Shown in pieces: positions 1,318 through 17,342 of a stretch of 18,701 nucleotides of DNA. The translations under genes and the position numbers were made by a program. The notes under the pieces were generated by a model that worked only from the letters and a program-made list of their open reading frames with translations, was not told where the DNA came from and ran no database searches. Location of the stretch: IMG/VR virus record IMGVR_UViG_3300044846_005772, one strand, 5' to 3'. The stretch is from a virus (lineage: Duplodnaviria > Heunggongvirae > Uroviricota > Caudoviricetes). Within the stretch, counting starts at the first letter, position 1, and each line of letters starts with the position of its first letter.

Positions 1318-1608
1318 ATGAAAAATAGAGTAAAGAGATTTGGAGAGTTCTTGAACGAGAATCACGAGGAGCGCATGGGTATTGATAACGAGATGATCGG
1401 CCTTGCAGAATTGGTAGATTGCTATATAGAGCAAAATTATCCGGAGGATTTGGTATTGGTTGCCGTCAAGAGTTCGGATACAGTTGAGGAATTAAGAGCA
1501 GGCGGCATCAGCATAGTTGTTGATCCTAGCGAAGAGATTATTGATGAGATTATGAATGATTCTGGCATCACCTCACAGATCTACGATAGCGGCAAACCGC
1601 AATTCTAA
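1318..1608 (+). CDS. Hypothetical acidic protein with capsid-targeting-like leader (MKNRVKRFGEFLNE)
   Basis: 96-aa ORF; late box upstream; terminator downstream; leader motif shared with 8 other ORFs. Confidence 0.8.
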   Translation: MKNRVKRFGEFLNENHEERMGIDNEMIGLAELVDCYIEQNYPEDLVLVAVKSSDTVEELRAGGISIVVDPSEEIIDEIMNDSGITSQIYDSGKPQF

Positions 1609-1628
1609 TTTTCCAAAGCATTGATATT

Positions 1629-1654
1629 AGGGGACCAAGTAGGTCCCTTTTTTT
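1629..1654 (+). terminator. Rho-independent terminator
   Basis: GGGACC-AAGTA-GGTCCC stem-loop followed by T7. Confidence 0.8.
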
Positions 1655-1655
1655 G

Positions 1656-1663
1656 GATAAATA
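1656..1663 (+). promoter_or_regulatory. T4-like late promoter box (GATAAATA)
   Basis: Immediately after the terminator, 7 nt before ATG 1671. Confidence 0.6.
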
Positions 1664-1670
1664 AAAGAGT

Positions 1671-2330
1671 ATGATACGCAATTACGATAATTGGAGATCC
1701 CTTAATGAAAGTAAGATTAATCCGGACCAACGTGTACTGCTTGACCTTGGATTACTTAACATTTCTGACGAACAGGCCGATTTTCTAGACAGGTTTACGC
1801 AAGGCACCTGGTCGATCGATGAGGAGACCCAGATCGTGGATATTGAAGGCAACTTCATCTGCGAGGACATCGATGAAATATTTGACTTTTTCGGTACCAG
1901 ATTCGGTCGAGTTACTGGCAATTTCAACTGTAGTTTGCACAGATTAACCAGCTTAGAAGGTGCACCTAAAGAGGTCGGTGGAAACTTTGACTGTAGCCAC
2001 AACGAGCTCACTAGCCTGGCAGGAGCTCCTGAGAAGGTCGGTGGATCCTTTGGCTGTTACTCTAACCAGCTAACCAGCCTGGTAGGAGCTCCGGAGAAGG
2101 TCGATGGGTCTTTTGACTGTTACTGGAACCAGCTAACCAGCTTAGAAGGTGCACCTAAAGAAGTCGGTGGAAGCTTCGATTGTAGTTACAACAAGTTAAC
2201 GAGTCTCGAAGGAATGCCTGCCCTGATAGGCGGAGACTTCGACTATAGCAATAATCATATAACAACCGGGAAAGGTCGACCTGGAAGAGTCGTTGGCAGC
2301 ATTAAGTGTAATAATAACCGACCAGAATAA
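1671..2330 (+). CDS. Leucine-rich-repeat-like protein (21-aa repeats LTSLEGAPxxVGGxFxCxxNx) with capsid-targeting-like leader
   Basis: Five clear repeats plus degenerate flanks; 63-bp DNA periodicity (near-identical units at 1944 and 2133, 189 bp apart). Confidence 0.85.
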   Translation: MIRNYDNWRSLNESKINPDQRVLLDLGLLNISDEQADFLDRFTQGTWSIDEETQIVDIEGNFICEDIDEIFDFFGTRFGRVTGNFNCSLHRLTSLEGAPKEVGGNFDCSHNELTSLAGAPEKVGGSFGCYSNQLTSLVGAPEKVDGSFDCYWNQLTSLEGAPKEVGGSFDCSYNKLTSLEGMPALIGGDFDYSNNHITTGKGRPGRVVGSIKCNNNRPE

Positions 2331-2356
2331 AATAAATAAAATAAATTTAGAATCGC

Positions 2357-2983
2357 ATGAAAAATAGAATAAAGGCATTCTCCCAGTTCATCAATGAGAA
2401 TTCACAGGGCATTTCCAAAAAAGAGATACTTGAAGAATTGGCTGGAAAGGCTTACTTTCATTTCGAAAATGATGATATATGGTATGATGAGGACGACCGG
2501 TACATCACAAAAGGCCGTAACGAAATGAAATATAAAGTTCTAGATTCTTTGAAACCGACTGCAGTATTTGATAACTTTGAGGACTGGTCCAACTCCAAAT
2601 GGTTTCATTCAAATATTACAAGCTTTTTGGATCAACGACTTTTTAATCGATATGCCGATGAGTATGGAGCGTTTATCGTAGTTGACCTTAGACGTAAAAA
2701 GAGATCCAGACAAATTGAAGAATCTTCTGAAGAGAATCATAATCTAGACATTACTATCGGCGAATTCATGATGAAGCTCAGATCTGACTATAACAGATGG
2801 GCAGAGACTATTCATCATGAGGACGACCGCCTGAGCCTTTGGGATTTCTATTATGAACTTGAAAGGGAGTACGAACGCGACTATGGAATCAAGATGGACC
2901 GTGATACTGAAAATCTGGAATACACCTCAAGAAATTCCAACTGGACCGATCCATACGACGATGATGAGGAAGATTACTATTAA
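2357..2983 (+). CDS. Hypothetical protein with capsid-targeting-like leader (MKNRIKAFSQFINE)
   Basis: 208-aa ORF; AATAAATA at 2331-2338; acidic C-terminus. Confidence 0.8.
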   Translation: MKNRIKAFSQFINENSQGISKKEILEELAGKAYFHFENDDIWYDEDDRYITKGRNEMKYKVLDSLKPTAVFDNFEDWSNSKWFHSNITSFLDQRLFNRYADEYGAFIVVDLRRKKRSRQIEESSEENHNLDITIGEFMMKLRSDYNRWAETIHHEDDRLSLWDFYYELEREYERDYGIKMDRDTENLEYTSRNSNWTDPYDDDEEDYY

Positions 2984-3022
2984 ATCTACCTCGTTTAATA
3001 AATAACAAAAATAAATTTAATT

Positions 3023-3454
3023 ATGATACTCAACTACGATCAATGGAGAGAAATCAACGAAAACGATAATCTTGAAGCGGCTGGTGTTGCCAAGAAGATT
3101 TATCGGGCATTGAAGGCAGCCGGTAACGAGGTTGATCTTACGTATCAGACCGACGCTCTTTCCAAGAAAGGCGACGCAAAGCACATACGCAATGCGGCAG
3201 CTGATACGATCACAGTCGCATACTATGTTAACTGGGTGCATGTTGTTCCAGTAGATGAAGAAACAGCAGATTCCCTAATCTCCGAATATGAAACAGATAC
3301 TATCACTGGCAAGAAGAGTAAGTATAACGATGAGCTTTACTCAGTAGCATTTAGCATAAAGGATCGCAAGCAACGTAACGATTTTAACCTTAGTGATTAT
3401 TCATTTTCACGTAAGGAAAACAAGAACGATCGTAAGCGTAAGAAGGAAGATTGA
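3023..3454 (+). CDS. Hypothetical protein with capsid-targeting-like leader (MILNYDQWREINE) and basic C-terminal tail
   Basis: 143-aa ORF; AATAAATA at 2997-3004; ends in RKENKNDRKRKKED. Confidence 0.8.
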   Translation: MILNYDQWREINENDNLEAAGVAKKIYRALKAAGNEVDLTYQTDALSKKGDAKHIRNAAADTITVAYYVNWVHVVPVDEETADSLISEYETDTITGKKSKYNDELYSVAFSIKDRKQRNDFNLSDYSFSRKENKNDRKRKKED

Positions 3455-3465
3455 TCTTAAATCGC

Positions 3466-3843
3466 CTAGTCTCTTAACCTACCCCTTACCATTAATTTTG
3501 CAGTAGCGATATTTGTAGCAATTGGGATCTGCATCACGTTACAAATTCTAAGCAGCATCTGAATATCCGGATCGTGTGGATGCGCGCTCAGCGGGTCCAT
3601 GATAAAGATCACCCCGTGCACCCGTCCTTCAACCACCTCGGCCGCTATCTGAGCATCCCCACCAAGAGGGCCGCTGCGTTTACGCTCAACTTTAAGCCCA
3701 GCCTCTTCCAATAGGAGACCAGTCGTGCCTGTTGCCAGGAGATCAACTTCCTTAAAATTCTCGATTTCCCTAATCACAAATGAGATGAGCTCGGCTTTTT
3801 TACCGTCATGTGCTATCACAGCAATCCTAAGTTTCTTTTCCAT
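3466..3843 (-). CDS. mgsA: Methylglyoxal synthase
   Basis: Signature motifs IAHDGKK, ATGTTG, SGPLGGDAQI, DPLSAHPHDPD, CNV..IPIATN.ATA; 125 aa. Confidence 0.95.
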   Translation of the reverse strand: MEKKLRIAVIAHDGKKAELISFVIREIENFKEVDLLATGTTGLLLEEAGLKVERKRSGPLGGDAQIAAEVVEGRVHGVIFIMDPLSAHPHDPDIQMLLRICNVMQIPIATNIATAKLMVRGRLRD

Positions 3844-3881
3844 GATTTTTTATACTCCTATTTAGATATTGGATCAGGTCA

Positions 3882-3889
3882 GATAAATA
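3882..3889 (+). promoter_or_regulatory. T4-like late promoter box (GATAAATA)
   Basis: 23 nt before ATG 3913. Confidence 0.55.
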
Positions 3890-3912
3890 ATACTACAAAT
3901 AAACAGATACTT

Positions 3913-6684
3913 ATGTCATTTATCAATTGGGGAGACGAAACTCCAGAACAAAAGGCACACCGTCGAAAGATGGAAGAGCAAGCGCTTATTGAACACGCAA
4001 TGATGCGTAAAATATTTGAGGCACGTAGCGGAACAGCGTCAGCTGCAGCAGCATCCGCTGGCTCTGGCTCGCCTTTTCCAAGTAAACTAGGAATAAGTAC
4101 ATCTTACATATACGACGATATTAATGGAGATCTCCGAATTGGTTTCGTAGACTATGCTATCAATGGATTCAGCAAGGTGTTCAACACAGGTCTTAACCTC
4201 GTAGATCAGTGGATTTACGATATTAATAATTATAATGGAACTTACATAGTTGATAGTAAGGGATACGCGATCGTCTTTTCAAACAACGTAAATGAGCACA
4301 AGATCTTCTTCTTTACTGCAGGAGGAGCTCACATAGACACCATTGAAGTTACTACTAGCGATCTTTCAATATGGGGCATCAATGGCGACTGGGTTCTATT
4401 GCAAGACTATGATGCTCGTAAAGTATGGTGGTTCGATGGCGAAACTCTTAGATACGATTTCGATACATTTGCAAATACTAGTATTTTTACATACGACTAT
4501 CAGTATAACTTGGATGGATTCTTCATATACTCCTTGAAAAATGGAATGAGTCGTGTCTATATTAACGACGGCCTAGGATTCAGAGTAATCATGGAGCAGG
4601 ATATTACTCTAACTCCAGATATCTCCCATATCCATAGAGCTTATGCAAACTCCAGAATCCTACGTGTCATTACCTACGATTCTGCAGAAGGGGCATATAC
4701 GAAGCTTGAGTATTTCGATTCTGATGCTAATTCTCTGAACGACTATGATCTTTCAGGTGAAAATTATACTGAAACATATGGCGATGTTTATGGAACAGGT
4801 AAGCATATTGATTCCTTCCTAAACTCAACTACGCTTATCATGTATTACTGCGATTCGGTTAGACAGATATATCTAGATCAAAATCACTCTAGAGTTAATT
4901 ATGGAGACTACTTCGTTATTGGCGATTATGTGAGTAAAGGCACATTCACCGACTCAATCTCAGAGAGAGCTGTGATATGTTTCAACAATAATTCCGGAAT
5001 CTATCAAAATGGACTACTTGAAGTAACTTACTGCGATTTCATTCCAATGTACGACGACAATAATGCGTTTTCAACGTATACGCTTGCCGACGACGAAGCT
5101 AAGCTTTTTGGAAGAGATAGCATTTTTGTAGCAGACGCAATTTTTGTACCGGTTTGCACAGATACTGTAGCTGATCCTAAGCAGCTTCAGGTGCTGACCT
5201 TCCCTATTGGTGCCCCTGCAACATACACATCAGATTTGATCGACTTTAATAGTTTTCAAATTATTCAAAACTCTTTTGGCTCAGGTAAGAGATACTTCTT
5301 AATCGTTAGCGACGACGCGTATCCTTCTCCAGGAGAAGTCTTCGTATTCGATTCAGTTGGACTTTCATGGAAGTCATTTATCTTTACTGATGTTACTAAC
5401 GGTAACTTAGTAATTGATACTGCGGGTGATGTCTTAACTTTTAGATGTTCAAACGATCCGTCTGATACTTACTATTACACAGCAACTACTAATATTTTAA
5501 ACCCAGGCGTAGCTCCTAAGTTTGGAAGCGTTTACCAACCAACTAACTGTAAAACAGAAAATGGAGTGGAACCAAGTACGCTTGTACTACAGGGAGCAAC
5601 TAGTTCTAGACTGTACCTTTTCAACGACGCTGGCAATGATGCGATAATCGATGGAGGGGACAACATGTACAATGGAGGAAATCAGCTGTATTCTGGTATT
5701 GCTGGATCAATTCCATACACTCACACGCAATCGACTGGAAATAATGGAGTTGAAGCGACATCTGCCGACTTTGTGAAGGATGGAGCAGTAGTGAATGGCG
5801 ATTCATACTTCGGAGGAGGATCCAGCTACTTTACAAATTGTTATCCTGGTCTCTTCGTTTGCGTAGCTAAAAACATTAATGTGGATTACTTTGGAATTGA
5901 AGGAACAACTGGATCCGATACTTCTGGATATGTCTCAAGTGATCCTATCAACATCACGGTCGGTGGAACAGATTACACAGTATTCTACAAGACTACTTCG
6001 GGTGGAGGTGTTGACTTCTCGTCAGGTCCAATTCCTACGGTTAACCAGATCATAATTATTGATTCTCAAAGCGGAGATGCTATTCAAACAGTTGGCGATG
6101 GAGCACTCAATGATCTTCATGAAATAAGCGAGCTCGTTGCTTCAGGCGCTAATGATATTCACTACCTTTTGCTATCAACCTACAATCAATCTGTTCAGGT
6201 TGGATTAACTGAGAGCGAAATTACTACTATTGCAACTGCATACTTGAACGTGGTTCATGGATACAATATTGCAGATACCTTATCCGAACTTAACGCTAAC
6301 TACTCGGAGATCACAAGTTTAGTAAACTCTCAGGATACTTACTGGTTAGGTCTAGTAAATAACTCAGGATTCACTCAAGTTGACTCTCCATACTTTGAAA
6401 ACGTTAGAGTTGGACCTAACTTAATAGCTGGAGTTTATTTCAATGAGACAAATAACGTTTGCGTAAACCTTTACGATACTAGCTTACAGTTGCTGGCAAC
6501 ACACGTTACTGATGAGACTGAATATACTCACTTGAGAGTTATTGGAGATCGCGCGTACACAAGAACATTGAAGCAAGACGGTACACGAGTTTGGACTATC
6601 CTAAATCCTGAAAAGTTCGCTAAAAAGTCGGTTTTTGCAGTAAATGACTTTTTTGCAGAAAACAACGATTATCCAAACTGGTAA
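3913..6684 (+). CDS. Large beta-rich putative virion/receptor-binding protein (923 aa from MSFINWGDE)
   Basis: Long ORF; start moved from 3808 (which overlaps mgsA) to ATG 3913 behind a late box. Short helical N-terminus, Ala/Ser/Gly linker, then a Tyr/Asn/Asp/Gly-rich body. Function is inferred only. Confidence 0.65.
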   Translation: MSFINWGDETPEQKAHRRKMEEQALIEHAMMRKIFEARSGTASAAAASAGSGSPFPSKLGISTSYIYDDINGDLRIGFVDYAINGFSKVFNTGLNLVDQWIYDINNYNGTYIVDSKGYAIVFSNNVNEHKIFFFTAGGAHIDTIEVTTSDLSIWGINGDWVLLQDYDARKVWWFDGETLRYDFDTFANTSIFTYDYQYNLDGFFIYSLKNGMSRVYINDGLGFRVIMEQDITLTPDISHIHRAYANSRILRVITYDSAEGAYTKLEYFDSDANSLNDYDLSGENYTETYGDVYGTGKHIDSFLNSTTLIMYYCDSVRQIYLDQNHSRVNYGDYFVIGDYVSKGTFTDSISERAVICFNNNSGIYQNGLLEVTYCDFIPMYDDNNAFSTYTLADDEAKLFGRDSIFVADAIFVPVCTDTVADPKQLQVLTFPIGAPATYTSDLIDFNSFQIIQNSFGSGKRYFLIVSDDAYPSPGEVFVFDSVGLSWKSFIFTDVTNGNLVIDTAGDVLTFRCSNDPSDTYYYTATTNILNPGVAPKFGSVYQPTNCKTENGVEPSTLVLQGATSSRLYLFNDAGNDAIIDGGDNMYNGGNQLYSGIAGSIPYTHTQSTGNNGVEATSADFVKDGAVVNGDSYFGGGSSYFTNCYPGLFVCVAKNINVDYFGIEGTTGSDTSGYVSSDPINITVGGTDYTVFYKTTSGGGVDFSSGPIPTVNQIIIIDSQSGDAIQTVGDGALNDLHEISELVASGANDIHYLLLSTYNQSVQVGLTESEITTIATAYLNVVHGYNIADTLSELNANYSEITSLVNSQDTYWLGLVNNSGFTQVDSPYFENVRVGPNLIAGVYFNETNNVCVNLYDTSLQLLATHVTDETEYTHLRVIGDRAYTRTLKQDGTRVWTILNPEKFAKKSVFAVNDFFAENNDYPNW

Positions 6685-6706
6685 ACCATTCAAAAAATTA
6701 AAAGAG

Positions 6707-6979
6707 ATGAAATATTTTATTAATGCAACTATCATCGATCCCACATTGGGAAAGGTAAAACAGAAATTGGAATACGACGTAAATTTTGATGCAAGTCCTA
6801 CTGTTGAATCAGCAAAGACAGAGCTTCTTAAACGTGTAGTAGTACCTAAAGGCTATGAATTATCTAAGGAGACTATCGAGATCAGAGGTAAGAAAAGAGA
6901 TCTTGCTTTTGTGATAGAAGACAAAATGCATGTAATATACACAGCAAATCTTCAAGAAATTCCTAAAGAAAAGAAGTAA
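6707..6979 (+). CDS. Hypothetical protein (90 aa from MKYFINAT)
   Basis: ATG 6707 in an A-rich context after the stop at 6684; ends inside a terminator hairpin. Confidence 0.65.
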   Translation: MKYFINATIIDPTLGKVKQKLEYDVNFDASPTVESAKTELLKRVVVPKGYELSKETIEIRGKKRDLAFVIEDKMHVIYTANLQEIPKEKK

Positions 6980-6999
6980 TCGAAAGATTACTTCTTTTT
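6969..6999. terminator. Bidirectional Rho-independent terminator
   Basis: Perfect 13-bp stem AAAAGAAGTAATC-GAAA-GATTACTTCTTTT between convergent genes. Confidence 0.85.
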
Positions 7000-7038
7000 A
7001 CTATTTTATTTGAGAAATCTTTCATGCGCAGTTAATCG

Positions 7039-7239
7039 CTATTCATCTTCTCCTTTTTTGAAATCAACATCATAAAGACCTAACTCTTCATCATGCCTCA
7101 TCATATCAATAAGGGCTTGCTTCTGTAGTTTTTTCTCACCTTCCTTACTTACTATCCTATGATTGTCATTATCAAAGAGTCCCCACACCATTTGGAATGG
7201 ATGCAATACTGCTATCTTAAATACTTTCTTCCACTTCAT
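7039..7239 (-). CDS. Hypothetical protein (66 aa)
   Basis: ORF in the minus-strand run, ending near the bidirectional terminator. Confidence 0.6.
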   Translation of the reverse strand: MKWKKVFKIAVLHPFQMVWGLFDNDNHRIVSKEGEKKLQKQALIDMMRHDEELGLYDVDFKKGEDE

Positions 7240-7522
7240 ATCTTGTCTCTGGATAAAATTCTACACCATACACTTTAACTTCCTCTATCTCTAGTCCTCC
7301 ATTGAAATCATCTACTTCATATCGATACATCCCTTCAAACTCATCCGGATACTTACTATCGTATGGAGTCCAGTCAAGGCACTTTGCCTTTGGGTCAGTA
7401 CCTATCCCATAATATTCATCCAATCCTGCTTTAAGATCCTTCTCTGTGTGAGCAGTTACTATCGGTTTTCCGTATGGAGATATTGCTACGTATGTTACTC
7501 TTATGTATGTTCTTATAACCAT
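7217..7522 (-). CDS. Hypothetical protein (101 aa)
   Basis: Protein-like composition; short overlap with the downstream ORF. Confidence 0.7.
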   Translation of the reverse strand: MVIRTYIRVTYVAISPYGKPIVTAHTEKDLKAGLDEYYGIGTDPKAKCLDWTPYDSKYPDEFEGMYRYEVDDFNGGLEIEEVKVYGVEFYPETRYEVEESI

Positions 7523-7549
7523 TGTCTACCCGTAAAAATATGCTTAGTT

Positions 7550-7786
7550 TTATCGTATTGCATGAATTGGGTTCGTACAATTTCCCTTGTGTGTCAAATA
7601 ACTTGAGCGAGGATCTCCCGATAATCTACCCAAGTACTGGCAACCATCAATCTCATATTCCTGAATATCTACTCGATATGTGTCAAAGTCTAACGTGTAT
7701 TCAGTTTGTGATGCACTTTTAACTGATTCTTGGTTCTCACAAGAAGTTAACATAACTATACTTGCTACTAAAATAAGTCCTTTCAT
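7550..7786 (-). CDS. Small lipoprotein
   Basis: Signal peptide II MKGLILVASIVMLTS-C (Cys16); C-terminal GCQYL...LTHKGNC with a Cys pair. Confidence 0.75.
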   Translation of the reverse strand: MKGLILVASIVMLTSCENQESVKSASQTEYTLDFDTYRVDIQEYEIDGCQYLGRLSGDPRSSYLTHKGNCTNPIHAIR

Positions 7787-7803
7787 GTAATTAAGGTACT
7801 AAA
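7784..7803 (-). promoter_or_regulatory. Shared upstream motif TTTAGTAYMTTAATWACATG (putative early/middle promoter plus start region), copy 1
   Basis: TTTAGTACCTTAATTACATG; 17/20 identical to the motif at 9821-9840. Confidence 0.45.
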
Positions 7804-7829
7804 AAGTAGTTAATTATTAAAACTTAGAT

Positions 7830-8429
7830 TTATTTTAAAGAATTGATTAATTGATTAGATATTATGCCAACATTTAGAGTATTTACTGGAGTTAACGTCT
7901 GTCCACTTCTTAGTTTTTTAGCGCTTTCTTTATGCTCCCAGTGCCATGGCTCAATATTTCTAGCAAGTGTGGTAAATCCAAAAACCTCTGCATTTGTTTT
8001 TGCTCCACTCTTAAGAGCCGCTAACTCTGCGCTAGGTGCAGCATTTAACCAATTCCAAGCAGAATCTCCCTTTTTTACAGTTATATCAACTGCACTTCCC
8101 CACCCATGATTAGATGTACCTGGGCGAGCCGCCAAGTTTCCTTTTCCTGATTTATACTTTTTCCAAGCACACCACTGTGTAAAGCCCTTAGAACAACCTT
8201 CACTTTCGCTACCTAATGCTCGGTATGATTGCAATATTTTCCAACGTATTCCAGCTTTTTCAGCTGCAGCTACCATTGCATTATACGCAGCTGCCGCTTC
8301 CGGATTAAGGCGATGATCAGCAGTTTCACCCATTTTTTTCACAATTGGGATTAGCAGATTTGTGCTTAATGCTCCATTTGAATTCTCATTAAGTTTCTTC
8401 CAATCGAAATATTCAACTAAGTATTTCAT
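7830..8429 (-). CDS. M15B/VanY-type D-Ala-D-Ala carboxypeptidase-like Zn peptidase with capsid-targeting-like leader
   Basis: YR motif, PGTSNHGWGSAVD (SxHxxGxAxD) and EPWH (ExxH); leader MKYLVEYFDWKKLNE. Confidence 0.9.
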   Translation of the reverse strand: MKYLVEYFDWKKLNENSNGALSTNLLIPIVKKMGETADHRLNPEAAAAYNAMVAAAEKAGIRWKILQSYRALGSESEGCSKGFTQWCAWKKYKSGKGNLAARPGTSNHGWGSAVDITVKKGDSAWNWLNAAPSAELAALKSGAKTNAEVFGFTTLARNIEPWHWEHKESAKKLRSGQTLTPVNTLNVGIISNQLINSLK

Positions 8430-8968
8430 TATATCATATCGATATTTTTTAGCCCAACTCTGATTATGTGGTGCATGATATTGTTGCCTAAATCATATAA
8501 AGTATCCGCATTTCTACCTAAACGTTTAATCTCATGTGGAGATAATGGAATAAGTGTTTTAGAACTAGAGTGTTCTGTCTCTTCATTCGTATGCAAATTA
8601 ATATATGTAGTAACTACTTGAAGATACATATTCTCAATTAACTCAGATGGAGTGAATAGTTCTAAGTCGATAAGTAAACTCGAATCACCCGAAGAATCAA
8701 GTATGCTTGCTTCTGCTCTATTGAATGCAAATTTTACTTTTGCATCGAACATTATTGCAAGAGGTTCTTCTGTTTTCCCATCAACTACTTGACCATAATC
8801 GAAGGATACTTCAAGCTGATTAACCATGGGTCTTACCCAAGCCATCCAATTAAGATACTTATTATCGTAATCATCATCGACTTCGGCTAAGATTCTTTTA
8901 GCTACATTATACTCTAATGAGCCAGACGCAGTAGCTTCGTTTACAAATTCTGAAAATGAATGCAACAT
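8429..8968 (-). CDS. Hypothetical protein with capsid-targeting-like leader (MLHSFSEFVNE)
   Basis: 179-aa ORF with 1-nt TAATG stop/start overlaps at both ends. Confidence 0.8.
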   Translation of the reverse strand: MLHSFSEFVNEATASGSLEYNVAKRILAEVDDDYDNKYLNWMAWVRPMVNQLEVSFDYGQVVDGKTEEPLAIMFDAKVKFAFNRAEASILDSSGDSSLLIDLELFTPSELIENMYLQVVTTYINLHTNEETEHSSSKTLIPLSPHEIKRLGRNADTLYDLGNNIMHHIIRVGLKNIDMI

Positions 8969-9198
8969 TAGTTTCTAGGATGGTATGGGCTCCTGTCCCC
9001 TCTTTTTGCTCTTTGTAGAACTTCCCATTGGCGATCGCTTGCTCGCCCTCCCTGCTTCATACAACGATCTAGAATCTTTAGAGCAAACTCGTTACCCTTA
9101 AGTATCTGTCGCCAGTATGTCTCACTTTTTATCTCATGCGGAAACTTTTCAGAATTTTCATTTAGCCAATTCAGATAATTTGATACATGGTTGTTCAT
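8968..9198 (-). CDS. Hypothetical basic protein (76 aa) with capsid-targeting-like leader (MNNHVSNYLNWLNE)
   Basis: Start reassigned from 9231 to ATG 9198, 5 nt after a GATAAATA box on the minus strand. Confidence 0.75.
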   Translation of the reverse strand: MNNHVSNYLNWLNENSEKFPHEIKSETYWRQILKGNEFALKILDRCMKQGGRASDRQWEVLQRAKRGDRSPYHPRN

Positions 9199-9203
9199 GA
9201 AAT

Positions 9204-9211
9204 TATTTATC
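9204..9211 (-). promoter_or_regulatory. T4-like late promoter box (GATAAATA) heading the three-gene operon 9198->7830
   Basis: + strand TATTTATC at 9204-9211. Confidence 0.6.
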
Positions 9212-9398
9212 TCTGCTCGTGAACAGTCCATTCATCATTTTCACGAATTGCTTTGATAACGTGTGTATCTCCATTTATCTTGAATTGCAATGTAATCGTT
9301 ACAGAATCTTCATGTAAAATTTTAACTTGAGTCGCCAGATCAGACGTACCTGATCCATATTTTTCCAAGATTTCCTTAACGGTTTTTTGGTACGACAT
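9207..9398 (-). CDS. Hypothetical protein (63 aa)
   Basis: Fills the gap in the minus-strand run; protein-like composition. Confidence 0.6.
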   Translation of the reverse strand: MSYQKTVKEILEKYGSGTSDLATQVKILHEDSVTITLQFKINGDTHVIKAIRENDEWTVHEQR

Positions 9399-9445
9399 GC
9401 GCTGCTGATTTTAAATCTTTTTTACTCAAAGATAATAATCAGGTT

Positions 9446-9823
9446 TTACTTATTAATCTCTTCCAAATCTTCTTGGATGAAGAATTCTCCCAACTGTCCA
9501 GGAAAAGCGAAGGCTGTTGCGTTTACAATCTTAGCTAGCTTCTCCGGTTTTACGTATGCTAATATGTAGTCACGAGAAGATGCATTAACTTTAATCGGTT
9601 CGTTCTCATACATAACTATCACTTGGAAACTTAGTACTCGATCCCCATCTACTTTCGCTAGACATAGCTTTGACCACGTTGCAACAACACTCCAGCCCGA
9701 TTCGAATGTCCACCGCATACCTTTTCCCTTAACTATGAAAGAACAACGATCGTCGTATATAGGAAGAAACAGGCTTTGATTCTCATACTCTAAGTATTCA
9801 GGAAAAACAGATTCAGTGTTCAT
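9446..9823 (-). CDS. Hypothetical protein (125 aa)
   Basis: ORF preceded by the shared TTTAGTATATTAATAACATG motif. Confidence 0.7.
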   Translation of the reverse strand: MNTESVFPEYLEYENQSLFLPIYDDRCSFIVKGKGMRWTFESGWSVVATWSKLCLAKVDGDRVLSFQVIVMYENEPIKVNASSRDYILAYVKPEKLAKIVNATAFAFPGQLGEFFIQEDLEEINK

Positions 9824-9840
9824 GTTATTAATATACTAAA
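9821..9840 (-). promoter_or_regulatory. Shared upstream motif (putative early/middle promoter plus start region), copy 2
   Basis: TTTAGTATATTAATAACATG; 17/20 identical to 7784-7803. Confidence 0.45.
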
Positions 9841-9858
9841 GGAACCTACTTTTTTACT

Positions 9859-9866
9859 GATAAATA
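9859..9866 (+). promoter_or_regulatory. T4-like late promoter box (GATAAATA)
   Basis: 25 nt upstream of ATG 9892 in a divergent intergenic region. Confidence 0.55.
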
Positions 9867-9891
9867 TTATTACAATCAAAAAATTAAAAAT

Positions 9892-10698
9892 ATGGCATTT
9901 AGCATAGTTATTTCAGAAGATCCTGATTATTCAACTGGGATTCTTGAAAATCGTTCCCTTAAGATAAAAGCTTCAATCAAAGTAATCGGAAACACTTTTC
10001 CAAAAGTATTAAAGGAAGTGCAAAAAGTTTTTACGTCAATTGATGAATTAAACAGTAACCTTAAAAGTATTGAGGCATATGGCAATGCAGACATTCGCAT
10101 ATATTTGGAACTTACTGCATCTACCTCTACTCAAACTGTTGAATTTGTGCAAGTCGGTGAAATCACGCCATTGATACAATCCGCATTAGACAACTCATTT
10201 ACTACTTATACGTATCATGGAGATGCAATTTTTCCATATAGCGAAGTTCCGAAACAAGAAGATCAAATTGAAGAACTTTCAGGAACAATTAAGTTACTTC
10301 TAATTTCCAAGGAAAAATTCGAAGATGCAATAGTTAATGAATATTCAGGAGAAACTCCTAGTATTTCAATAGATGAGGCTATCTCAGTAATTGATGAGCT
10401 AACTGCTGAATATAATAGAATTGGTGCAAAAATATCTGCATACAAAAAACAGGCAAATCGATATATTACTTTTGATGAATTTGATAAGAGCACTGAGGCT
10501 TTTTATAAAAAGTATTATGAACTTCTTTCAAATGATTTCATACCTAGATTAACTGAACTTATGGACAAAGCAGTAGACAATTCAGTTGTTTCTATCCAAG
10601 TTGATTCCAAGATATCTGACCGTTATAAAGCGATTGCTGCTGCTCGAACGGCTTTGACCAATTTGTTGTCTGTGCTTAATGCTCAGGGATTCAAGTAA
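9892..10698 (+). CDS. Hypothetical late protein (268 aa), helical C-terminal half
   Basis: Long ORF with a late box and A-rich start region; no recognised motif. Confidence 0.75.
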   Translation: MAFSIVISEDPDYSTGILENRSLKIKASIKVIGNTFPKVLKEVQKVFTSIDELNSNLKSIEAYGNADIRIYLELTASTSTQTVEFVQVGEITPLIQSALDNSFTTYTYHGDAIFPYSEVPKQEDQIEELSGTIKLLLISKEKFEDAIVNEYSGETPSISIDEAISVIDELTAEYNRIGAKISAYKKQANRYITFDEFDKSTEAFYKKYYELLSNDFIPRLTELMDKAVDNSVVSIQVDSKISDRYKAIAAARTALTNLLSVLNAQGFK

Positions 10699-10722
10699 AT
10701 GTGACTAATTATAATCTACCCT

Positions 10723-10730
10723 TATAAATA
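10723..10730 (+). promoter_or_regulatory. Exact T4 late promoter consensus TATAAATA upstream of the signalling operon
   Basis: TATAAATA at 10723-10730; nearest ATG at 10754, annotated GTG at 10768. Confidence 0.6.
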
Positions 10731-10767
10731 GTAATAGATATTACATTAAAAATATGAAACAGATAGA

Positions 10768-12003
10768 GTGTTTTGGCAAGATCTTCCACAGTCAAGTAGA
10801 TTTCCTTTAATTGGAGCTCTGCTTGTGATGGCAACTTTTGCAGCAATCAAAATGCTTTTATTTTTTGGAGTAGTCGAATATTCTTCCAAATCTTCATTAT
10901 TTGAAGTAGCTTGCTTTATAATATTCATTCCGAGTTTTTACATAACTGTTTTTGCATTCATCAATGAGCAAAAGAGAAAAAATCTCGAAATTAGTCAATT
11001 CATAGATGCGTCGGCGATTGTCTCAGTTACCGATAAGCGGGGTAAAATAACGTACGTTAATAAAAAATTTGAAGATGTATCTGGTTGGACTCTCAAGGAA
11101 GTAATAGGTAAAGACCATAGCTTAGTGAATTCGGACACCCAACCTGCTGGATATTGGGGTAAAATGTATGAAACTGTATTGCGTGGTGAAATATGGAATG
11201 ACATAGTCTGTAATAAAGCAAAGGACGGCTCTTACTATTGGGTCGACACATATATTAGAGCAAGGTTCGATGTTAATGGAGAACTTGAAGGTTTTTCATC
11301 GATTCGACAGGACGTTACGAAAATCTTGGAGCAATCCAATGAGCTTGACAGAAAGAATACGTATTTGGAACATGCTGCTAAGATACTTAGACATGATATG
11401 CACTCTGGTATCAACACATACATACCTAGAGGACTTAACTCCTTGGAAAGAAGATTAAATCACGAGGAAATCGATAGGTTAAAGATTGAAGCTCCTTTGA
11501 AGATGATTAAGGAAGGTTTAAAGCATTCGCAAAAAGTATATTCAGGTGTCTATGAATTTACTAATCTTGTCAAAAAAGACGTCGTTCTTAATAAGAAAGA
11601 GTGTTCAATTAAAGACATTCTCAAGGATTACTTGTCATCCACTGCGTACATTAGTCAAGTCATAATTGAAGAATCTCTTCCAACCATTTTAGTAAATGAA
11701 CCTCTTTTTTGTACAGCACTTGATAACTTAATTAGAAATGGTTTGAAATACAACGATTCTGATTCCAAATTCGTTAGGATATATTGTGAATCGAATTGCA
11801 TAGTAATACAAGATAATGGAAGAGGAATTACTCAGCAGGACTTTGATCATTTGTCTAAACCATACGTTAGGAAGGAAGGACAAAAGGAATCTGGAACAGG
11901 TTTAGGCTTGAATATTTGTGTAGCTATCCTAAAGGAACATGGTTTCAAAATCACCTGTGAGAAAAATGATATTGGAACAAAAATGAAAATACATTACTTA
12001 TGA
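10768..12003 (+). CDS. Membrane PAS-domain sensor histidine kinase
   Basis: Two N-terminal TM segments; Aer/NifL-like PAS (ITYVNKKF..SG...EVIG.DH...KDGSYYWV); H-box RHDMHS; N-box DNLIRNGLKYN; G1 DNGRG; G2 GTGLGL. Start codon uncertain. Confidence 0.9.
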   Translation: MFWQDLPQSSRFPLIGALLVMATFAAIKMLLFFGVVEYSSKSSLFEVACFIIFIPSFYITVFAFINEQKRKNLEISQFIDASAIVSVTDKRGKITYVNKKFEDVSGWTLKEVIGKDHSLVNSDTQPAGYWGKMYETVLRGEIWNDIVCNKAKDGSYYWVDTYIRARFDVNGELEGFSSIRQDVTKILEQSNELDRKNTYLEHAAKILRHDMHSGINTYIPRGLNSLERRLNHEEIDRLKIEAPLKMIKEGLKHSQKVYSGVYEFTNLVKKDVVLNKKECSIKDILKDYLSSTAYISQVIIEESLPTILVNEPLFCTALDNLIRNGLKYNDSDSKFVRIYCESNCIVIQDNGRGITQQDFDHLSKPYVRKEGQKESGTGLGLNICVAILKEHGFKITCEKNDIGTKMKIHYL

Positions 12004-12614
12004 AGAAATTATTATTAATAGTTTTATCATCTCTATTTTCTATGACAGTGTTTGCTCAAACCAAATATCCTATCAAGACAATATTCAAGGGAGACTCAGT
12101 TGTGATTTTAACAGTCCAACAATCTGAAAAAATAAATCAGATGCTTGAGAAAAGTGCAGTCGCGACCAAGGAAAATCGAAAGAAAAATAAAGAATATGAA
12201 GATGAGATTGCTAAGTTATCCAAGATAATTTCCGATCAGAATGCTTATATCGATAGTTTATCAAATGTATTATTAGAATGTTGGACTGATGGAGATGAAT
12301 TGTCCGATAGCTTATGGAAATGGGCGATAGGCCCTTCGCTCGTGTACACTCAATATCCAGACGATACTACTCTTTACGTTATGGACTTATCTCACTATTA
12401 CATGACAACTGATGATTTTGGAATAATTATGGTTAGATTGTCTGATCGTGAATATGCAAAATATCAGGAATTTATTGCTAGATATGGATTGAGCGAAGAT
12501 GCTTTTTGGAGATTTAGAAATGAGATGCGAATAAAAAAACTTAGCGATGCTGAAGTTAAGCAAAAAAGAGTTTGGAAGTTTAAATTACAGTGGAACAAGG
12601 AGGAACGTAAATGA
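12000..12614 (+). CDS. Secreted/periplasmic protein with coiled coil (signalling-operon accessory)
   Basis: Signal peptide MKKLLLIVLSSLFSMTVFA-Q; heptad region; ATGA overlaps with both neighbouring kinases. Confidence 0.8.
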   Translation: MKKLLLIVLSSLFSMTVFAQTKYPIKTIFKGDSVVILTVQQSEKINQMLEKSAVATKENRKKNKEYEDEIAKLSKIISDQNAYIDSLSNVLLECWTDGDELSDSLWKWAIGPSLVYTQYPDDTTLYVMDLSHYYMTTDDFGIIMVRLSDREYAKYQEFIARYGLSEDAFWRFRNEMRIKKLSDAEVKQKRVWKFKLQWNKEERK

Positions 12615-13942
12615 AATCAATATTAACCTTTATTTTTGTAGTAGCCAGTACACTCGTACTTTCTCAAGATAGCATTGATTTTACTATTAATCCAAATTGG
12701 GAAAATCCAGAAGAATTTAAAGACACTGTTGTCGCAAAGTCTTTCAACTTAAATGATATTTTTCCAGAAAAGATTATTCCAAGTTGGATCGCTCCAGAAC
12801 CAGATCCTGAGCCTCTTTCTCAAGAATTAAGTGAGGCCGATATTAAGTTATTGGAAGGCGATGTTAAATTTATGTCAGAACTTCCACAGTCATATTCTAA
12901 TTTACCTAAGGAGAATTTGAACTCGATTTTAAAGCAGATCGATAATAAAATAATTCAGTTAAAGCAGGAACTAGATGCTTTGATAAGCGCAAGAAATGCA
13001 AATCAGGAAGTTATTAAAACCAAGCAGAACACATTAACTGTTCTTGAAAAGGAAAAGAATATAATAAACTTGACATTGGCTGAGGGCGAGCTTAAGGACA
13101 AAAATGGAAACTTATTAAATCAAAATGATATATTAAAGATTGAGCAAGACAAACTTAGAAAGTACTTATATACTGCATTTGCTATTCTTCTAGCTCTTTC
13201 ATTAGTGATAGCTGTTGTTCTTCAAAGAAAAAGAATACAGGTTCAGGATGTTGAAATACAAGACCAAATTGACGAGATTAATAAAAAGAACAGCTATTTG
13301 GAGCATGCTGCTCGAATCATCAGACATGATATGCATTCTGGAATTAACACGTATATGCCACGTGGAATAAGTTCACTTGAAAAAAGGCTGAGCGCAGAAG
13401 ACATCCACAAATTAAAAATAGAAGCTGCTCTTAAGATGGTCAAAGAGGGCCTTAGTCACACTCAGAGGGTTTATAAAAGTGTATATGAGTTTACTAACTT
13501 AGTTAAACAGAATGTAGTTCTAAATAAATCTAATGTGAATCTTAAGCAACTTCTAGATACTTATATTTCCGCAAATCCATATAGTTCTCAAGTTGAAATT
13601 TCAGATCTTTGCGAGATAGAAGTAAATGAGATACTTTTTTGCACAGCTATTGAAAATTTAATAAAGAATGGTCTAACATATAACGATAGTTCAGAAAAAG
13701 TAGTTAAGATATATTTAGAAGAAGATTCATTAATCATAGAAGACAATGGCCGAGGATTTTCACAAAAGGATTTTGAAAAACAGCTTAAGAAGTATTCGAG
13801 CAAAGAAGAATTTTCAGAAGATGGAAAGGGTCTTGGCTTGAACATATGTTCAGCAATATTGGAAGAACATGGTTTTTCTCTCTCTTGTGATAAAGTTGAG
13901 AAAGGTACTAAAATGAAAATTAAACTAAAAAATAATAAATAA
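12611..13942 (+). CDS. Sensor histidine kinase with signal peptide, periplasmic coiled coil and one TM (paralogue of 10768..12003)
   Basis: YLEHAARIIRHDMHSGINTY H-box nearly identical to the first kinase; ENLIKNGLTYN, EDNGRG, GKGLGL boxes. Confidence 0.9.
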   Translation: MKSILTFIFVVASTLVLSQDSIDFTINPNWENPEEFKDTVVAKSFNLNDIFPEKIIPSWIAPEPDPEPLSQELSEADIKLLEGDVKFMSELPQSYSNLPKENLNSILKQIDNKIIQLKQELDALISARNANQEVIKTKQNTLTVLEKEKNIINLTLAEGELKDKNGNLLNQNDILKIEQDKLRKYLYTAFAILLALSLVIAVVLQRKRIQVQDVEIQDQIDEINKKNSYLEHAARIIRHDMHSGINTYMPRGISSLEKRLSAEDIHKLKIEAALKMVKEGLSHTQRVYKSVYEFTNLVKQNVVLNKSNVNLKQLLDTYISANPYSSQVEISDLCEIEVNEILFCTAIENLIKNGLTYNDSSEKVVKIYLEEDSLIIEDNGRGFSQKDFEKQLKKYSSKEEFSEDGKGLGLNICSAILEEHGFSLSCDKVEKGTKMKIKLKNNK

Positions 13943-13948
13943 AAAAGT

Positions 13949-14386
13949 ATGATAGATTCTATTTTGTTGGTCGATGATGAAGATTTATTTCATCTAGTTT
14001 TTGAGGATGCTTGCAGTTTGCTAGACATAACGCTATCCTTAAAATCTATTAGAAGTTCAGATGAGGCAGGCCGACTTTTTAAGAAGTGGTTCGATGAAGG
14101 ATCCAGCATAGAGAGACCAGAATGCGTGTTTGTTGACTTGAACATAATTGGTTCTTCATTCGATGGAATTGAATTGATTAGAAAGATAAACTTCGAATAT
14201 GGTAATCACGTTGTGATAGGAATAATCTCATCATCTAATGAATCTACTGAGCAGGCAAAAGCTGTTCAAGCAGGTGCTCAGTTTTGGATAATCAAATCAG
14301 ATGATATTGAGCCAAGATTAGAAGAATTCAAGAAGGATTACGACAGTTATAAAAATAGAACAGCTCCATTTAAAGTATACAGATGA
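13949..14386 (+). CDS. Single-domain (CheY-like) response regulator
   Basis: ILLVDDED acidic pocket, FVDLN phospho-acceptor Asp, ISSS, conserved Lys in IIKS; no output domain. Confidence 0.9.
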   Translation: MIDSILLVDDEDLFHLVFEDACSLLDITLSLKSIRSSDEAGRLFKKWFDEGSSIERPECVFVDLNIIGSSFDGIELIRKINFEYGNHVVIGIISSSNESTEQAKAVQAGAQFWIIKSDDIEPRLEEFKKDYDSYKNRTAPFKVYR

Positions 14387-15060
14387 TAAAACTTACTCCA
14401 GATATTCATAAAGAGTTAATTGAGTTACAGAAGACCAAAAATATATCTCTTGAAGGTAACATAATCCGCATGATAGATCATGATGGAGATGAGGAGTTTG
14501 CAAAGTATTTGGAAGAAAGTCTAGCTAAGGATAAAGAAACTCGACGTCGTAGGCTTGAGATCACCAAGCAGATTCAGGAGAAAAATAATGAGTTAACTAA
14601 TCTGAACGCTGAAAATCAGAGGATCATGGATGAACTTCAAGATTCTGTGAAAAATATGGAAGAGCAGAAGGATCAGATAGAAATTCAAAATCGTGAATTA
14701 ATTGCATGGAAGGAAGATAATGAACGAATTTCAATTGAACTTAGGGATGCAATGTTAGAATCTGAGAGAGCTAAGGAGGCTGCTGAACGCGCAAAGGATG
14801 CTGCTGAGACTGATCTCGATATGATGCAAAAGAAAACTCAATTTGAGTTGATTGGAGTAATCGTAAAAGTTTCTCTTTTTGTAATAATTGGTGTTGGAAT
14901 AACAACAACTGTTTTATACGTGATAGCAATATTCAACGGAACAGATACTCAGATAATCGGTTCAACTTGGAGTAATATGTTTGGTATATTATTGACGAAC
15001 GCTTTCTCGATAATAGGTACTATAATGGGAGTTAAGTACGCTAGCGAGAAGCCAAACTAA
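14383..15060 (+). CDS. Coiled-coil protein with two C-terminal TM helices
   Basis: Long charged heptad region, then hydrophobic VIVKVSLFVIIGVGITTTVLYVIAIF and MFGILLTNAFSIIGTIMGV; ATGA-coupled to the receiver gene. Confidence 0.8.
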   Translation: MIKLTPDIHKELIELQKTKNISLEGNIIRMIDHDGDEEFAKYLEESLAKDKETRRRRLEITKQIQEKNNELTNLNAENQRIMDELQDSVKNMEEQKDQIEIQNRELIAWKEDNERISIELRDAMLESERAKEAAERAKDAAETDLDMMQKKTQFELIGVIVKVSLFVIIGVGITTTVLYVIAIFNGTDTQIIGSTWSNMFGILLTNAFSIIGTIMGVKYASEKPN

Positions 15061-15121
15061 CTTACATGCGATCTATTTTAACAATCCTGTTCCTAACTAT
15101 TCCAATTTCTCTAGGGATTTG

Positions 15122-15129
15122 GATAAATA
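15122..15129 (+). promoter_or_regulatory. T4-like late promoter box (GATAAATA)
   Basis: 8 nt before in-frame ATG 15138. Confidence 0.6.
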
Positions 15130-15137
15130 TTAATACT

Positions 15138-16241
15138 ATGACTTACCTCATTCCATTATACGAACAGTTTAAAGAAGATAATGCATTAGCTGGTTATAAT
15201 TTTCACCAGGTGCCAGATGGCTTAAACAATTATAGAAGCGCACAGCTTCCTCCTGAACTTTTAGATTATGTCATAAAGAAATATGGCATAAAGAACGTAA
15301 TTCGATTGAATGGAGACGGCCATGATGCAAGGCACAGAAGAACAGATGTTGAGGTTCCTAGTGAAACTGAGAAAGCTACTTGCGAGAAAAACGGTTGTGT
15401 ATTCAATAAAGTCAGCTCACACAGAGGATACGTTCCAGGCCAAGGATATACTGAATCAATAAAGCAAGTAAATTCAATAATGAGCAAGGGAAATACTTTG
15501 ATTCATTGTGCGCATGGTGCAGATAGAACAGGTGGAATGGTTGCAGCTTGGTTAAAGAACAGCGGTAAAATGACCGACTTAAATCAACTTTGGGATTATA
15601 CTACTTCTAAAAATAGTTGGCTTTCGCTAATCAAAAATGGAGGTTTTTGGAAAGGTTATCATAAGTATGCAGATGGATTCTTTCCAGTAGATAAATTATG
15701 TTCCATTAAAGGAATATGTGCCCCTGGAACAACTAAACAGACTACTAATCAATCTCAAATACAATCTGCCCCAGGAAATGCTGTACTCGTAGGAGGATTG
15801 GACTATAGAGCTGGTGATTATAAGATAGATAAACAGGTCGAATTATTAAAGTCAGGCTATGGATCTTCAAAAACTGTTCAGGGATTTAGGTACAATACTG
15901 CAACATCCAAAGTTATTAACTTTTTATCGCAAAATCCAAAAGTTCCAATATTCTTATTTAGTGCAGGTTGCGTGAAGGCTAGCGATTTAGCGAAAAGCGA
16001 ATTTGTAGATAAATCAAGAATTTACATAATTGAGCCGTATGGTGTTGACGCGAATACTCGTAAAATTATCCAAGATGCAGTAAGTTTAGGTGTGCCTGCG
16101 TCAAACGTATTCGTTGGCTCATCTCAAGCAAGAGGAGCAAATATCGTTAGTGGAGCATCATCTTCTGGTTCAAATATTCATTGGGGAGCAGTCACTTCAG
16201 TTGGTCGATTAGTCGCTGATCGTGAGACAAAGGGTCAGTGA
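15138..16241 (+). CDS. Cys-dependent (CX5R) PTP/DSP-type phosphatase fused to an alpha/beta-hydrolase-like domain, with capsid-targeting-like leader
   Basis: YRSAQL, GIKNVIRL, IHCAHGADRTG P-loop; T/Q-rich linker; second domain VLVGGLD...LFSAG...YIIEP...H. Start reassigned from 15066 to 15138 (MTYLIPLYEQFKE). Confidence 0.8.
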   Translation: MTYLIPLYEQFKEDNALAGYNFHQVPDGLNNYRSAQLPPELLDYVIKKYGIKNVIRLNGDGHDARHRRTDVEVPSETEKATCEKNGCVFNKVSSHRGYVPGQGYTESIKQVNSIMSKGNTLIHCAHGADRTGGMVAAWLKNSGKMTDLNQLWDYTTSKNSWLSLIKNGGFWKGYHKYADGFFPVDKLCSIKGICAPGTTKQTTNQSQIQSAPGNAVLVGGLDYRAGDYKIDKQVELLKSGYGSSKTVQGFRYNTATSKVINFLSQNPKVPIFLFSAGCVKASDLAKSEFVDKSRIYIIEPYGVDANTRKIIQDAVSLGVPASNVFVGSSQARGANIVSGASSSGSNIHWGAVTSVGRLVADRETKGQ

Positions 16242-16597
16242 GACGCTTCAATTAAAAGTTCTCCAAGTACCTCTATGATTCCCATTATCTTTTGAAATTC
16301 TATAGGATTGTGATCAATTATCTCAGACGGCCTATCTCCTAATAATTTAATATTTTTTTCAAGTTCAGCTTTAGCTGCTGTGCTATCAAATTTTCCAGCA
16401 GCGGCTTTCATATAGTGCTTTAATTTTACTTGAAAGTGGTGATACGTTAACATAGCAGGTCCGCCCTTAGCTCGAGCAGTATCGGCTATCTTCTTAGCGC
16501 CATTATATCTTTTCTGAGCAAATTCTTCAAATGACTCTGATTTTGACTTTTTAGATTCTAATATAAATTCAGTATATTTTTTAACTAGACTGCTCAT
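16235..16597 (-). CDS. Hypothetical basic protein with capsid-targeting-like leader (MSSLVKKYTEFILE)
   Basis: 120-aa ORF; tandem CATAAATA/AATAAATA boxes on the minus strand at 16615-16626. Confidence 0.8.
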   Translation of the reverse strand: MSSLVKKYTEFILESKKSKSESFEEFAQKRYNGAKKIADTARAKGGPAMLTYHHFQVKLKHYMKAAAGKFDSTAAKAELEKNIKLLGDRPSEIIDHNPIEFQKIMGIIEVLGELLIEASH

Positions 16598-16778
16598 TTG
16601 ATAGATATTTCTTTTATTTATTTATGACGAAATACTTAACCTACTTTTAACTTTTTAGAAGAACATATAGTCGTCAGATTGAATAAATAACAAAGTAGAT
16701 AGTTTTACTATCATATCTTAATAAGTGTCCTATACCTAGGATTTTGCCAAATACTGGCAACTCAAAAAATCTAAATCC

Positions 16779-17336: not shown

Positions 17337-17342
17337 TGAATA

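Follow-up and report, generated by a model that had tools for sequence, protein, structure and literature searches.

The internal proteins of T-even phages have in common only a short N-terminal capsid-targeting sequence, or CTS (PMC3012670). In phage T4, mutagenesis of internal protein (IP) III has assigned residues 4 and 7 of the CTS to targeting and residues 8 and 10 to processing, the protease gp21 cleaving after L/I-x-E, and it has been suggested that the CTS may be a general route by which T4-like phages load varied proteins (PMC9026906). In the T4 record, IPII and IPIII begin with MKTYQEFIAE↓A, IPI with MKTFKEF...ITE↓A and Alt with MELITELFDE↓D (here and below, the arrow marks the junction behind the last Glu). 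The giant phages phiKZ, 201phi2-1 and SPN3US also contain many internal head proteins, which are cut after Glu by a gp21-related protease and include paralogues with conserved N-termini (PMC5694885). The present analysis concerns a stretch of metagenomic phage DNA of 18,701 nucleotides (IMG/VR record IMGVR_UViG_3300044846_005772; hereafter "the window"), in which a set of unrelated proteins starts with a common leader of 11-15 residues, within the length of a T4-type CTS (~10-19 residues). Sequence comparison makes it likely that these leaders are a T4-type capsid-targeting and cleavage tag of a large uncultured phage of the T4 superfamily.

The first-pass annotation of this DNA had listed nine leaders, and the nine N-termini read as it claimed, at 1318, 1671, 2357, 3023, 8429 (-), 8968 (-), 9198 (-), 15138 and 16597 (-). 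The shared leader that it described, with an aromatic-x-x-aromatic pair followed by [LIV]-x-E, is found in eight of the nine; the peptide at 15138 ends in F-K-E and is probably no N-terminus (see below). Counted from the terminal Glu (position 0), the aromatics of these eight stand either at -6/-3 (class A: 1318, 2357, 8968, 9198 and 16597) or at -8/-5 (class B: 1671, 3023 and 8429), and seven of the eight end in [LIV]-N-E. The likeness to the T4 leader that had been proposed is exact for class A, the register of which is that of IPIII as read from the T4 record. The genes, with the ATAAATA boxes ahead of them, are as follows.

1318..1608, + strand: tagged ORFan of 96 residues without Pfam match; leader MKNRVKRFGEFLNE↓N, class A; box 1296-1302.
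1671..2330, + strand: tagged leucine-rich-repeat (LRR) protein of 219 residues; leader MIRNYDNWRSLNE↓S, class B; box 1657-1663.
2357..2983, + strand: tagged ORFan of 208 residues; leader MKNRIKAFSQFINE↓N, class A; box 2332-2338.
3023..3454, + strand: tagged ORFan of 143 residues; leader MILNYDQWREINE↓N, class B; box 2998-3004.
7830..8429, - strand: tagged M15/VanY peptidoglycan peptidase of 199 residues; leader MKYLVEYFDWKKLNE↓N, class B; start overlapping the stop of the upstream gene.
8429..8968, - strand: tagged ORFan of 179 residues; leader MLHSFSEFVNE↓A, class A; start overlapping the stop of the upstream gene.
8968..9198, - strand: tagged ORFan of 76 residues; leader MNNHVSNYLNWLNE↓N, class A with W; box 9204-9210 (-).
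16235..16597, - strand: tagged protein of 120 residues; leader MSSLVKKYTEFILE↓S, class A; double box 16615-16625 (-), with copies at 16615 and 16619.
15066..16241, + strand: CX5R (dual-specificity) phosphatase with a second domain; doubtful leader MTYLIPLYEQFKE at 15138; box 15123-15129 inside the open reading frame (ORF).

The cargo of the eight firm leaders consists of an LRR protein, a cell-wall peptidase of the M15 type and six proteins without any family. Both named functions agree with those proposed earlier: the LRR protein matches Internalin-J (E 1.4e-11) and SspH1, and the peptidase is recognized by the Pfam VanY profile (9.9e-13), its M15 metal-binding residues being invariant. The C-terminal 75 residues of the 2357..2983 protein share 53% identity with the end of a 562-residue tagged protein of a related phage (G016, see below). 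An all-against-all BLASTP of the mature parts gave no match below E 0.01, in keeping with the earlier idea of one tag on very different cargos, the leader alone being common to them.

The N-terminal restriction of the motif is marked. In its strict form, [FWY]xx[FWY]x(0-2)[ILV]xE, it occurs nine times in the 5,533 residues of the window proteins, against ~3 expected from shuffles, and eight of these nine matches begin at residues 5-8 of a protein, where ~0.1 would be expected (Poisson P ~2e-13). Chance as the source of the leaders is rejected on these N-terminal statistics. When any ATG is allowed as a start, the motif is found 4.3 times per 10 kb in the window, as counted from the eight real leaders, versus 0.28 per 10 kb in 799 kb of T4-like phage DNA, and a complete 310-kb relative contains only ~10 chance-like matches. 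The strict expression recovers IPII and IPIII of T4. Another good match to the tag, MLLEFKQFLYE↓A, opens a 76-codon frame of the T4 record, in the region annotated as uvsW (114210, + strand; locus L061, 14211). Across 58 leaders from the window, its contig and two relatives, further preferences emerge at positions that the search pattern does not impose: position -9 is hydrophobic, -8 favours K, -4 Q and -1 N, and N, S or A follows at +1. This conservation lies at the protein level and not in the DNA, because synonymous codons vary at the conserved residues (TTG, CTT, CTA or TTA for L, AAC or AAT for N, GAG or GAA for E, with F and I varying too).

Late promoters of T4-like phages have the form TATAAATA, the first base of which varies (PMC1524935, PMC2984593). 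As the first-pass annotation had it, seven of its nine leaders lie directly behind an ATAAATA box, placed 7-15 nt upstream of the ATG, and the other two, at 8968 (-) and 8429 (-), are coupled to the preceding stop as TAATG. The position of the box at 9204-9210 (-) argues against the upstream ATG at 9231 as the start of the 8968..9198 gene. The total number of boxes in the window is not clearly above chance (14 versus 8.0 ± 2.7 in shuffles); the signal resides in their placement, 12 of the 14 preceding a gene in their own orientation and 10 of those within 25 nt of its start. Boxes also precede the first histidine kinase (10724) and the response regulator (13935) of an operon at 10768-15060, which encodes two paralogous histidine kinases, one of them with a PAS domain, a response regulator and a coiled-coil membrane protein. 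All of these are untagged, and the tag is therefore not general to box-driven genes.

Homologues of the tagged proteins reveal an exchange of leaders at a fixed junction. In the M15 family, a common mature start, xxNG[KR]L, follows differing leaders that all end in [LIVF]-x-E, as in MSQYIQNYDSWKSLNE↓SANGRL, MTKILSYAEFVNE↓AANGRL, MNFIFE↓SQNGKL and MLLIE↓SSNGKL, and other homologues start exactly at the leader junction, e.g. with MQNGKL or MAENGKL. Likewise, the conserved mature part of the 120-residue family (16235-16597) stands behind MDKLVQDYVQFITE↓S in L390, FMDFNALHE↓A in G016, MKVILSE↓S in G037 and MKIILTE↓E in G039. Varied leaders, or none, at one fixed junction fit what an exchangeable and removable propeptide would predict. 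A different N-terminal peptide, of the type MN-L-x-E-N-I-x-R-I-[KR]-x-x-M-G-L-x-E, recurs in many homologues of the C-terminal domain of the phosphatase (P0124, P0127, P0158 and P0175); a similar one, LNEEVNRMKRLF, is found at the C-terminus of the M15 protein of phage contig L001 (10600-10693). Such peptides may represent another class of sorting or assembly signal.

The tag also goes together with a T4 gp21-type protease (PF03420) across genomes. Among IMG/VR contigs with a tagged M15 protein, this protease is present in 6 of 12, among them all 3 that are at least 90% complete, versus 0 of 9 with an untagged M15 protein (Fisher P 0.019). A DNA pattern for MK...F-x-Q-F-x-N-E, scanned over IMG/VR, yielded at least 120 loci. 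Among the matches listed, 123 of 127 open an ORF of at least 50 codons, at least 52 loci have three or more tagged ORFs, and 18 of the 21 contigs that the tag alone brought up and that measure 100 kb or more carry PF03420, all 4 with a completeness of at least 90% being among them. In 17 of these 18, again among the matches listed, the protease frame is 504-831 codons long, mostly 600-830.

Two relatives were scanned over their whole genomes, G013 (270 kb, 100% complete) and G016 (253 kb, 94% complete), both with a guanine-plus-cytosine (GC) content of 38-39%, as in the window. The genome-wide leader scan, which the first-pass annotation had proposed, gave 27 tagged genes in G013 and 31 in G016, with leaders near-identical to those of the window (e.g. 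MKNQVKRFTQFINEN and MKTFSQFINENSQ). The co-occurrence with late boxes that it had also proposed to look for was borne out by an enrichment of tagged genes behind ATAAATA, with odds ratios of 3.8 and 3.1, respectively. Homologues of gp21, gp23 and gp20 are encoded in both genomes, and one of gp18 also in G013; a sheath gene lies behind a double box. The late sigma factor gp55 has homologues in the tag-bearing G013, G015 and G016, detected with a PHROG profile (E 1e-17 in G013 and G016) where tblastn with T4 gp55 found nothing in the relatives. Small tagged genes directly adjoin the capsid gene in both G013 and G016, and the propeptide region of the capsid protein contains SINE↓S or SLNE↓S near the position at which T4 gp23 is cut. 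The G013 protease keeps the LxHP and SSR motifs of the catalytic region when aligned to T4 gp21. In both relatives, the Peptidase S77 domain and a repeat-rich, scaffold-like coiled-coil part share one open frame (L152 728-2566 in G013, ~64429-66450 in G016). Ahead of the protease domain, these frames contain FIIE as well as KINE↓A or VNE↓A sites. The stretch with these sites precedes the first ATG in G013, which suggests that translation may start at a non-ATG codon; in G016, the first ATG is far downstream, at the start of the coiled coil.

The window itself has a near-identical counterpart in a 42.9-kb contig of the Joint Genome Institute (JGI; loci L006, L008 and L011), which spans it and continues for ~24 kb; the window and this contig, ~43 kb in all, are the reach for this phage. 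Four more candidate leaders are found downstream on the contig: MSFIKKYKDWRFINE↓A, MPFPFLNE↓A, MKALSFSQWTQLNE↓A and MELLSFELFE↓A. The extension also encodes 21 transfer RNAs (tRNAs), fibre-like proteins, a sigma-70-family protein and a 690-residue protein of phrog_33734. The tRNA cluster occupies L011 13069-18381, ~1 kb past the end of the window. Relatives of the 690-residue protein with ~50% identity occur in IMG/VR, on contigs as long as 310 kb. The T4 gp21-type protease is present in 9 of 9 long relatives reached in this way, and a gp23-type capsid protein in 5 of 5 of those checked for it. Only 4 of 44 genes are common to the window contig and G002, and such limited sharing suggests that the window is a fast-changing part of a large T4-superfamily phage. 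The host is probably a member of the Bacteroidota, as indicated by C-terminal domains of the type IX secretion system and by the nearest named relatives of the capsid protein, the Prevotella Lak phages (seen for G013). The former occur at 16779-18701, where three signal-peptide proteins carry PKD and CHU_C (type IX secretion C-terminal) domains.

Searches for close relatives were negative on several sides. Cultured phages gave no match to the window in megablast or to its 923-residue protein (3913..6684, see below) in tblastn, the M15 protein had no relative in genome_contigs, and the 923-residue protein had none in IMG/VR. A metagenome scan with a gp21 alignment returned only proteases of the G002 clade, 80-86% identical, none from the freshwater samples of the window and none tag-rich. 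Contigs of the same samples that match the tag pattern, L346 and L347, belong to other phages.

Taken together with what is known of T4, the tag suggests the following sequence of events. A gp55-type sigma factor would transcribe the tagged genes late, from nATAAATA promoters that leave very short 5' leaders. The peptide of 8-15 residues, characterized by a hydrophobic position -9, K at -8, an aromatic pair at -6/-3 or -8/-5 and a [LIV]-N-E end, would bind the scaffolding core of the prohead, and a gp21-type (Peptidase S77) prohead protease would cut behind its Glu. The mature cargo would remain in the head and leave it with the DNA at infection. By analogy with T4, it is probable that at least eight proteins of the window are packaged alongside the DNA and injected into the host, where they may serve in anti-defence or takeover.

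Several observations weigh against this reading. The first concerns the leader at 15138, which had been counted as a ninth N-terminal tag and does not hold up as one. The 15066..16241 protein is a phosphatase by Pfam (DSPc, 4.4e-6) and by PDB matches (DUSP18/21). Its homologues mostly have a transmembrane helix just ahead of the catalytic domain, and the ORF from 15066 supplies a comparable hydrophobic helix. A homologue with 74% identity conserves this ATG, and its counterparts of the 24 codons upstream of 15138 are likewise in frame and hydrophobic. The peptide itself has no [ILV] at P3. Position 15138 is thus probably internal to a membrane-anchored protein starting at 15066, and it is doubtful that the peptide is a real tag. 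Other members of the phosphatase family are clearly tagged (e.g. MKKLKNFSEFLNE↓G).

The gp21-like protease, which the first-pass annotation had proposed to look for and which the tag-bearing relatives do possess, was not seen in this phage: no protease, capsid or gp55 gene lies within its reachable ~43 kb. Only ~40% of the tagged genes of the relatives are directly behind a box. The closest relatives by conserved genes (G002, G037 and G039) lack the aromatic tag, though they have short leaders of the MKxILxE type. Expression data are confined to four short contigs of one riverine RNA library, three identical to 6471-7195 and one ~92% identical at 5410-5609, and they give nothing on the tagged genes, their starts or their timing. 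Tagged cell-wall hydrolases are of three kinds across the relatives, and if one of them were the lysis enzyme, the tag would not serve packaging alone. Finally, a RecA/UvsX-type recombinase starts with MDAFAKFNDLLE↓K, or five codons upstream with MAKTT, in both G013 (L151 7081-8253) and G016 (L162 10731-11906). This match to the expression most likely arose by chance; if real, it would put the tag on a protein of the replication phase.

Among the alternatives to delivery into the host, the one that survives best, unlikely as it is, accepts targeting to the prohead core and cleavage as real, with most of the tagged proteins being accessories of the assembly core or scaffold that are degraded and expelled, or that act only inside the capsid. 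T4 provides a model for it in gp22, gp67 and gp68, which bear this cleavage motif and are cleared from the head (PMC9026906). The small tagged genes beside the capsid gene of G013 and G016 would suit such a role, as would the lack of a recognizable domain in most tagged proteins. A Pfam search of 62 tagged proteins left at least two thirds without a match; the remainder, however, include VanY (M15), lysozyme, CHAP, NUDIX, nucleotidyltransferase, HAD and phosphatase domains, and of these the three cell-wall hydrolases, NUDIX, nucleotidyltransferase and HAD, like the LRR binder, make sense only outside the capsid. Moreover, each tagged window protein has a single [LIV]NE tripeptide, at the end of its leader, whereas degraded core proteins typically have several cleavage sites.

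It is less probable still that capsid loading plays no part and that the leader acts as a docking or sorting signal for another destination, such as the tail or baseplate, the membrane, a chaperone or a phage compartment, or keeps late enzymes inactive as an inhibitory propeptide. The head location of the tagged proteins is indeed deduced, and several of them are cell-wall hydrolases, which in other phages are found in tails or act in lysis. Against such roles stand the residue-by-residue match to the T4 CTS as mapped by mutagenesis, the fixed Glu junction, the association with genomes encoding an S77 protease, and the tagged genes next to the capsid gene.

That the shared 5' ends are instead a nucleic-acid feature, either a mobile promoter-plus-start cassette or a near-leaderless start context with the peptide as a by-product, is very improbable: promoter cassettes are reported to mediate gene shuffling in T4-like phages (PMC4122927, PMC2839356), the 5' leaders are very short and the same two types of leader are combined in both neighbour pairs, 1318/1671 and 2357/3023, but a DNA-level cassette is rejected on the synonymous codon variety at conserved residues, two members have no promoter of their own, and the motif is kept across phages of 22-39% GC and in T4.

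Other genes and sequences of the window lie close to the tagged set without clearly belonging to it. Three of them have leader-like starts.

3913..6684, + strand: protein of 923 residues with a weak tag-like start, MSFINWGDE↓T, in which the aromatics have class A spacing and G replaces [LIV]; box 3883-3889.
9892..10698, + strand: protein of 268 residues starting with MAFSIVISE↓D, a cleavage-type I-x-E without an aromatic pair; no confident Pfam match; box 9860-9866.
9207-9398, - strand: leader-like MSYQKTVKEILE↓K, resembling the 9892 start.

The start at 3913 agrees with the calls in public assemblies, and a homologue of the 923-residue protein is encoded in phage contig L001. The 9892..10698 protein, spotted by eye like the 9207-9398 leader, is only a possible member of the tagged set. 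A methylglyoxal-synthase-like gene (3466-3843, -), 57% identical to a gene of the tag-bearing G013, lies on the opposite strand among the tagged genes. The region 100-1290 is GC-rich (~48%) and has no convincing gene; Rfam and tRNA scans of the window, this region included, gave nothing. A 74-nt direct repeat is found at 117-190 and 475-548, with 78% identity between the copies, each of which is bounded by a 7-bp inverted repeat showing a compensating change (CCTGTAC/GTACAGG versus CCTGTAA/TTACAGG). Folding of the two copies was not significant (z-scores of -1.7 and -1.2).

Phage proteins that travel with the DNA are hard to identify without a cultured phage and proteomics; if the tag works as in T4, sequence alone marks them. 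Candidate first-strike factors in the window are the LRR binder, the cell-wall peptidase and six unknowns, and hundreds more candidates from related metagenomic phages would be natural places to seek counter-defence and takeover functions. With somewhat less than even confidence, it may be proposed that a widespread clade of large uncultured T4-superfamily phages devotes ~8-10% of its genes to capsid-loaded, injected proteins bearing one tag. The phages in question have mostly 130-480-kb genomes, long protease frames, 25-30 tagged genes per relative genome and probably Bacteroidota hosts. In that case, the sets of injected effectors of uncultured phages would become readable directly from metagenomes. 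The targeting register appears to be conserved between T4 and phages with capsid proteins only ~27% identical to its own, and a tag in a register identical to that of T4 may, if functional, serve as a packaging handle across phages.

Our literature search found no paper tying capsid-targeting sequences to metagenomic huge or jumbo phages. A cell-wall enzyme carried in the head, as proposed for the tagged M15 peptidase, would have a precedent in gp16 of phage T7, which resides inside the capsid, degrades peptidoglycan and exits the head upon infection; it is a large core protein, however, and lacks a cleaved tag of the T4 type. The internal head proteins of phiKZ, 201phi2-1 and SPN3US differ from those described here in their S/A-x-E motifs, in propeptides that mostly exceed 100 residues, in the absence of an aromatic pair and in being supported by mass spectrometry. 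The T4 CTS is far closer: in both systems a short N-terminal peptide stands on unrelated proteins, its Glu at 0 is preceded by an aliphatic residue at -2, an aromatic pair at -6/-3 and K at -8 (here F-x-[EQ]-F-[LIV]-N-E↓[NSA]), and late boxes are of the TATAAATA type. Even the less typical leader of Alt has a counterpart, since MELLSFELFE↓A of the downstream contig resembles MELITELFDE↓D. In contrast with T4, N is preferred here at P2, a second class of leaders has its aromatics at -8/-5, the cargo comprises enzymes and an LRR protein, the protease frames of the relatives are long, the host is probably a member of the Bacteroidota, and the tag is known from sequence alone. The main difference is one of scale. 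T4 has four named tagged proteins, its three IPs and Alt, whereas eight firm ones are encoded in 18.7 kb here, at least 12 in 43 kb and 27-31 in each relative genome, which, if the tag works as in T4, points to a packaged repertoire much larger than that of T4. The type of tag is thus already known from the T4 CTS, and it is its scale and spread that are notable in these phages.

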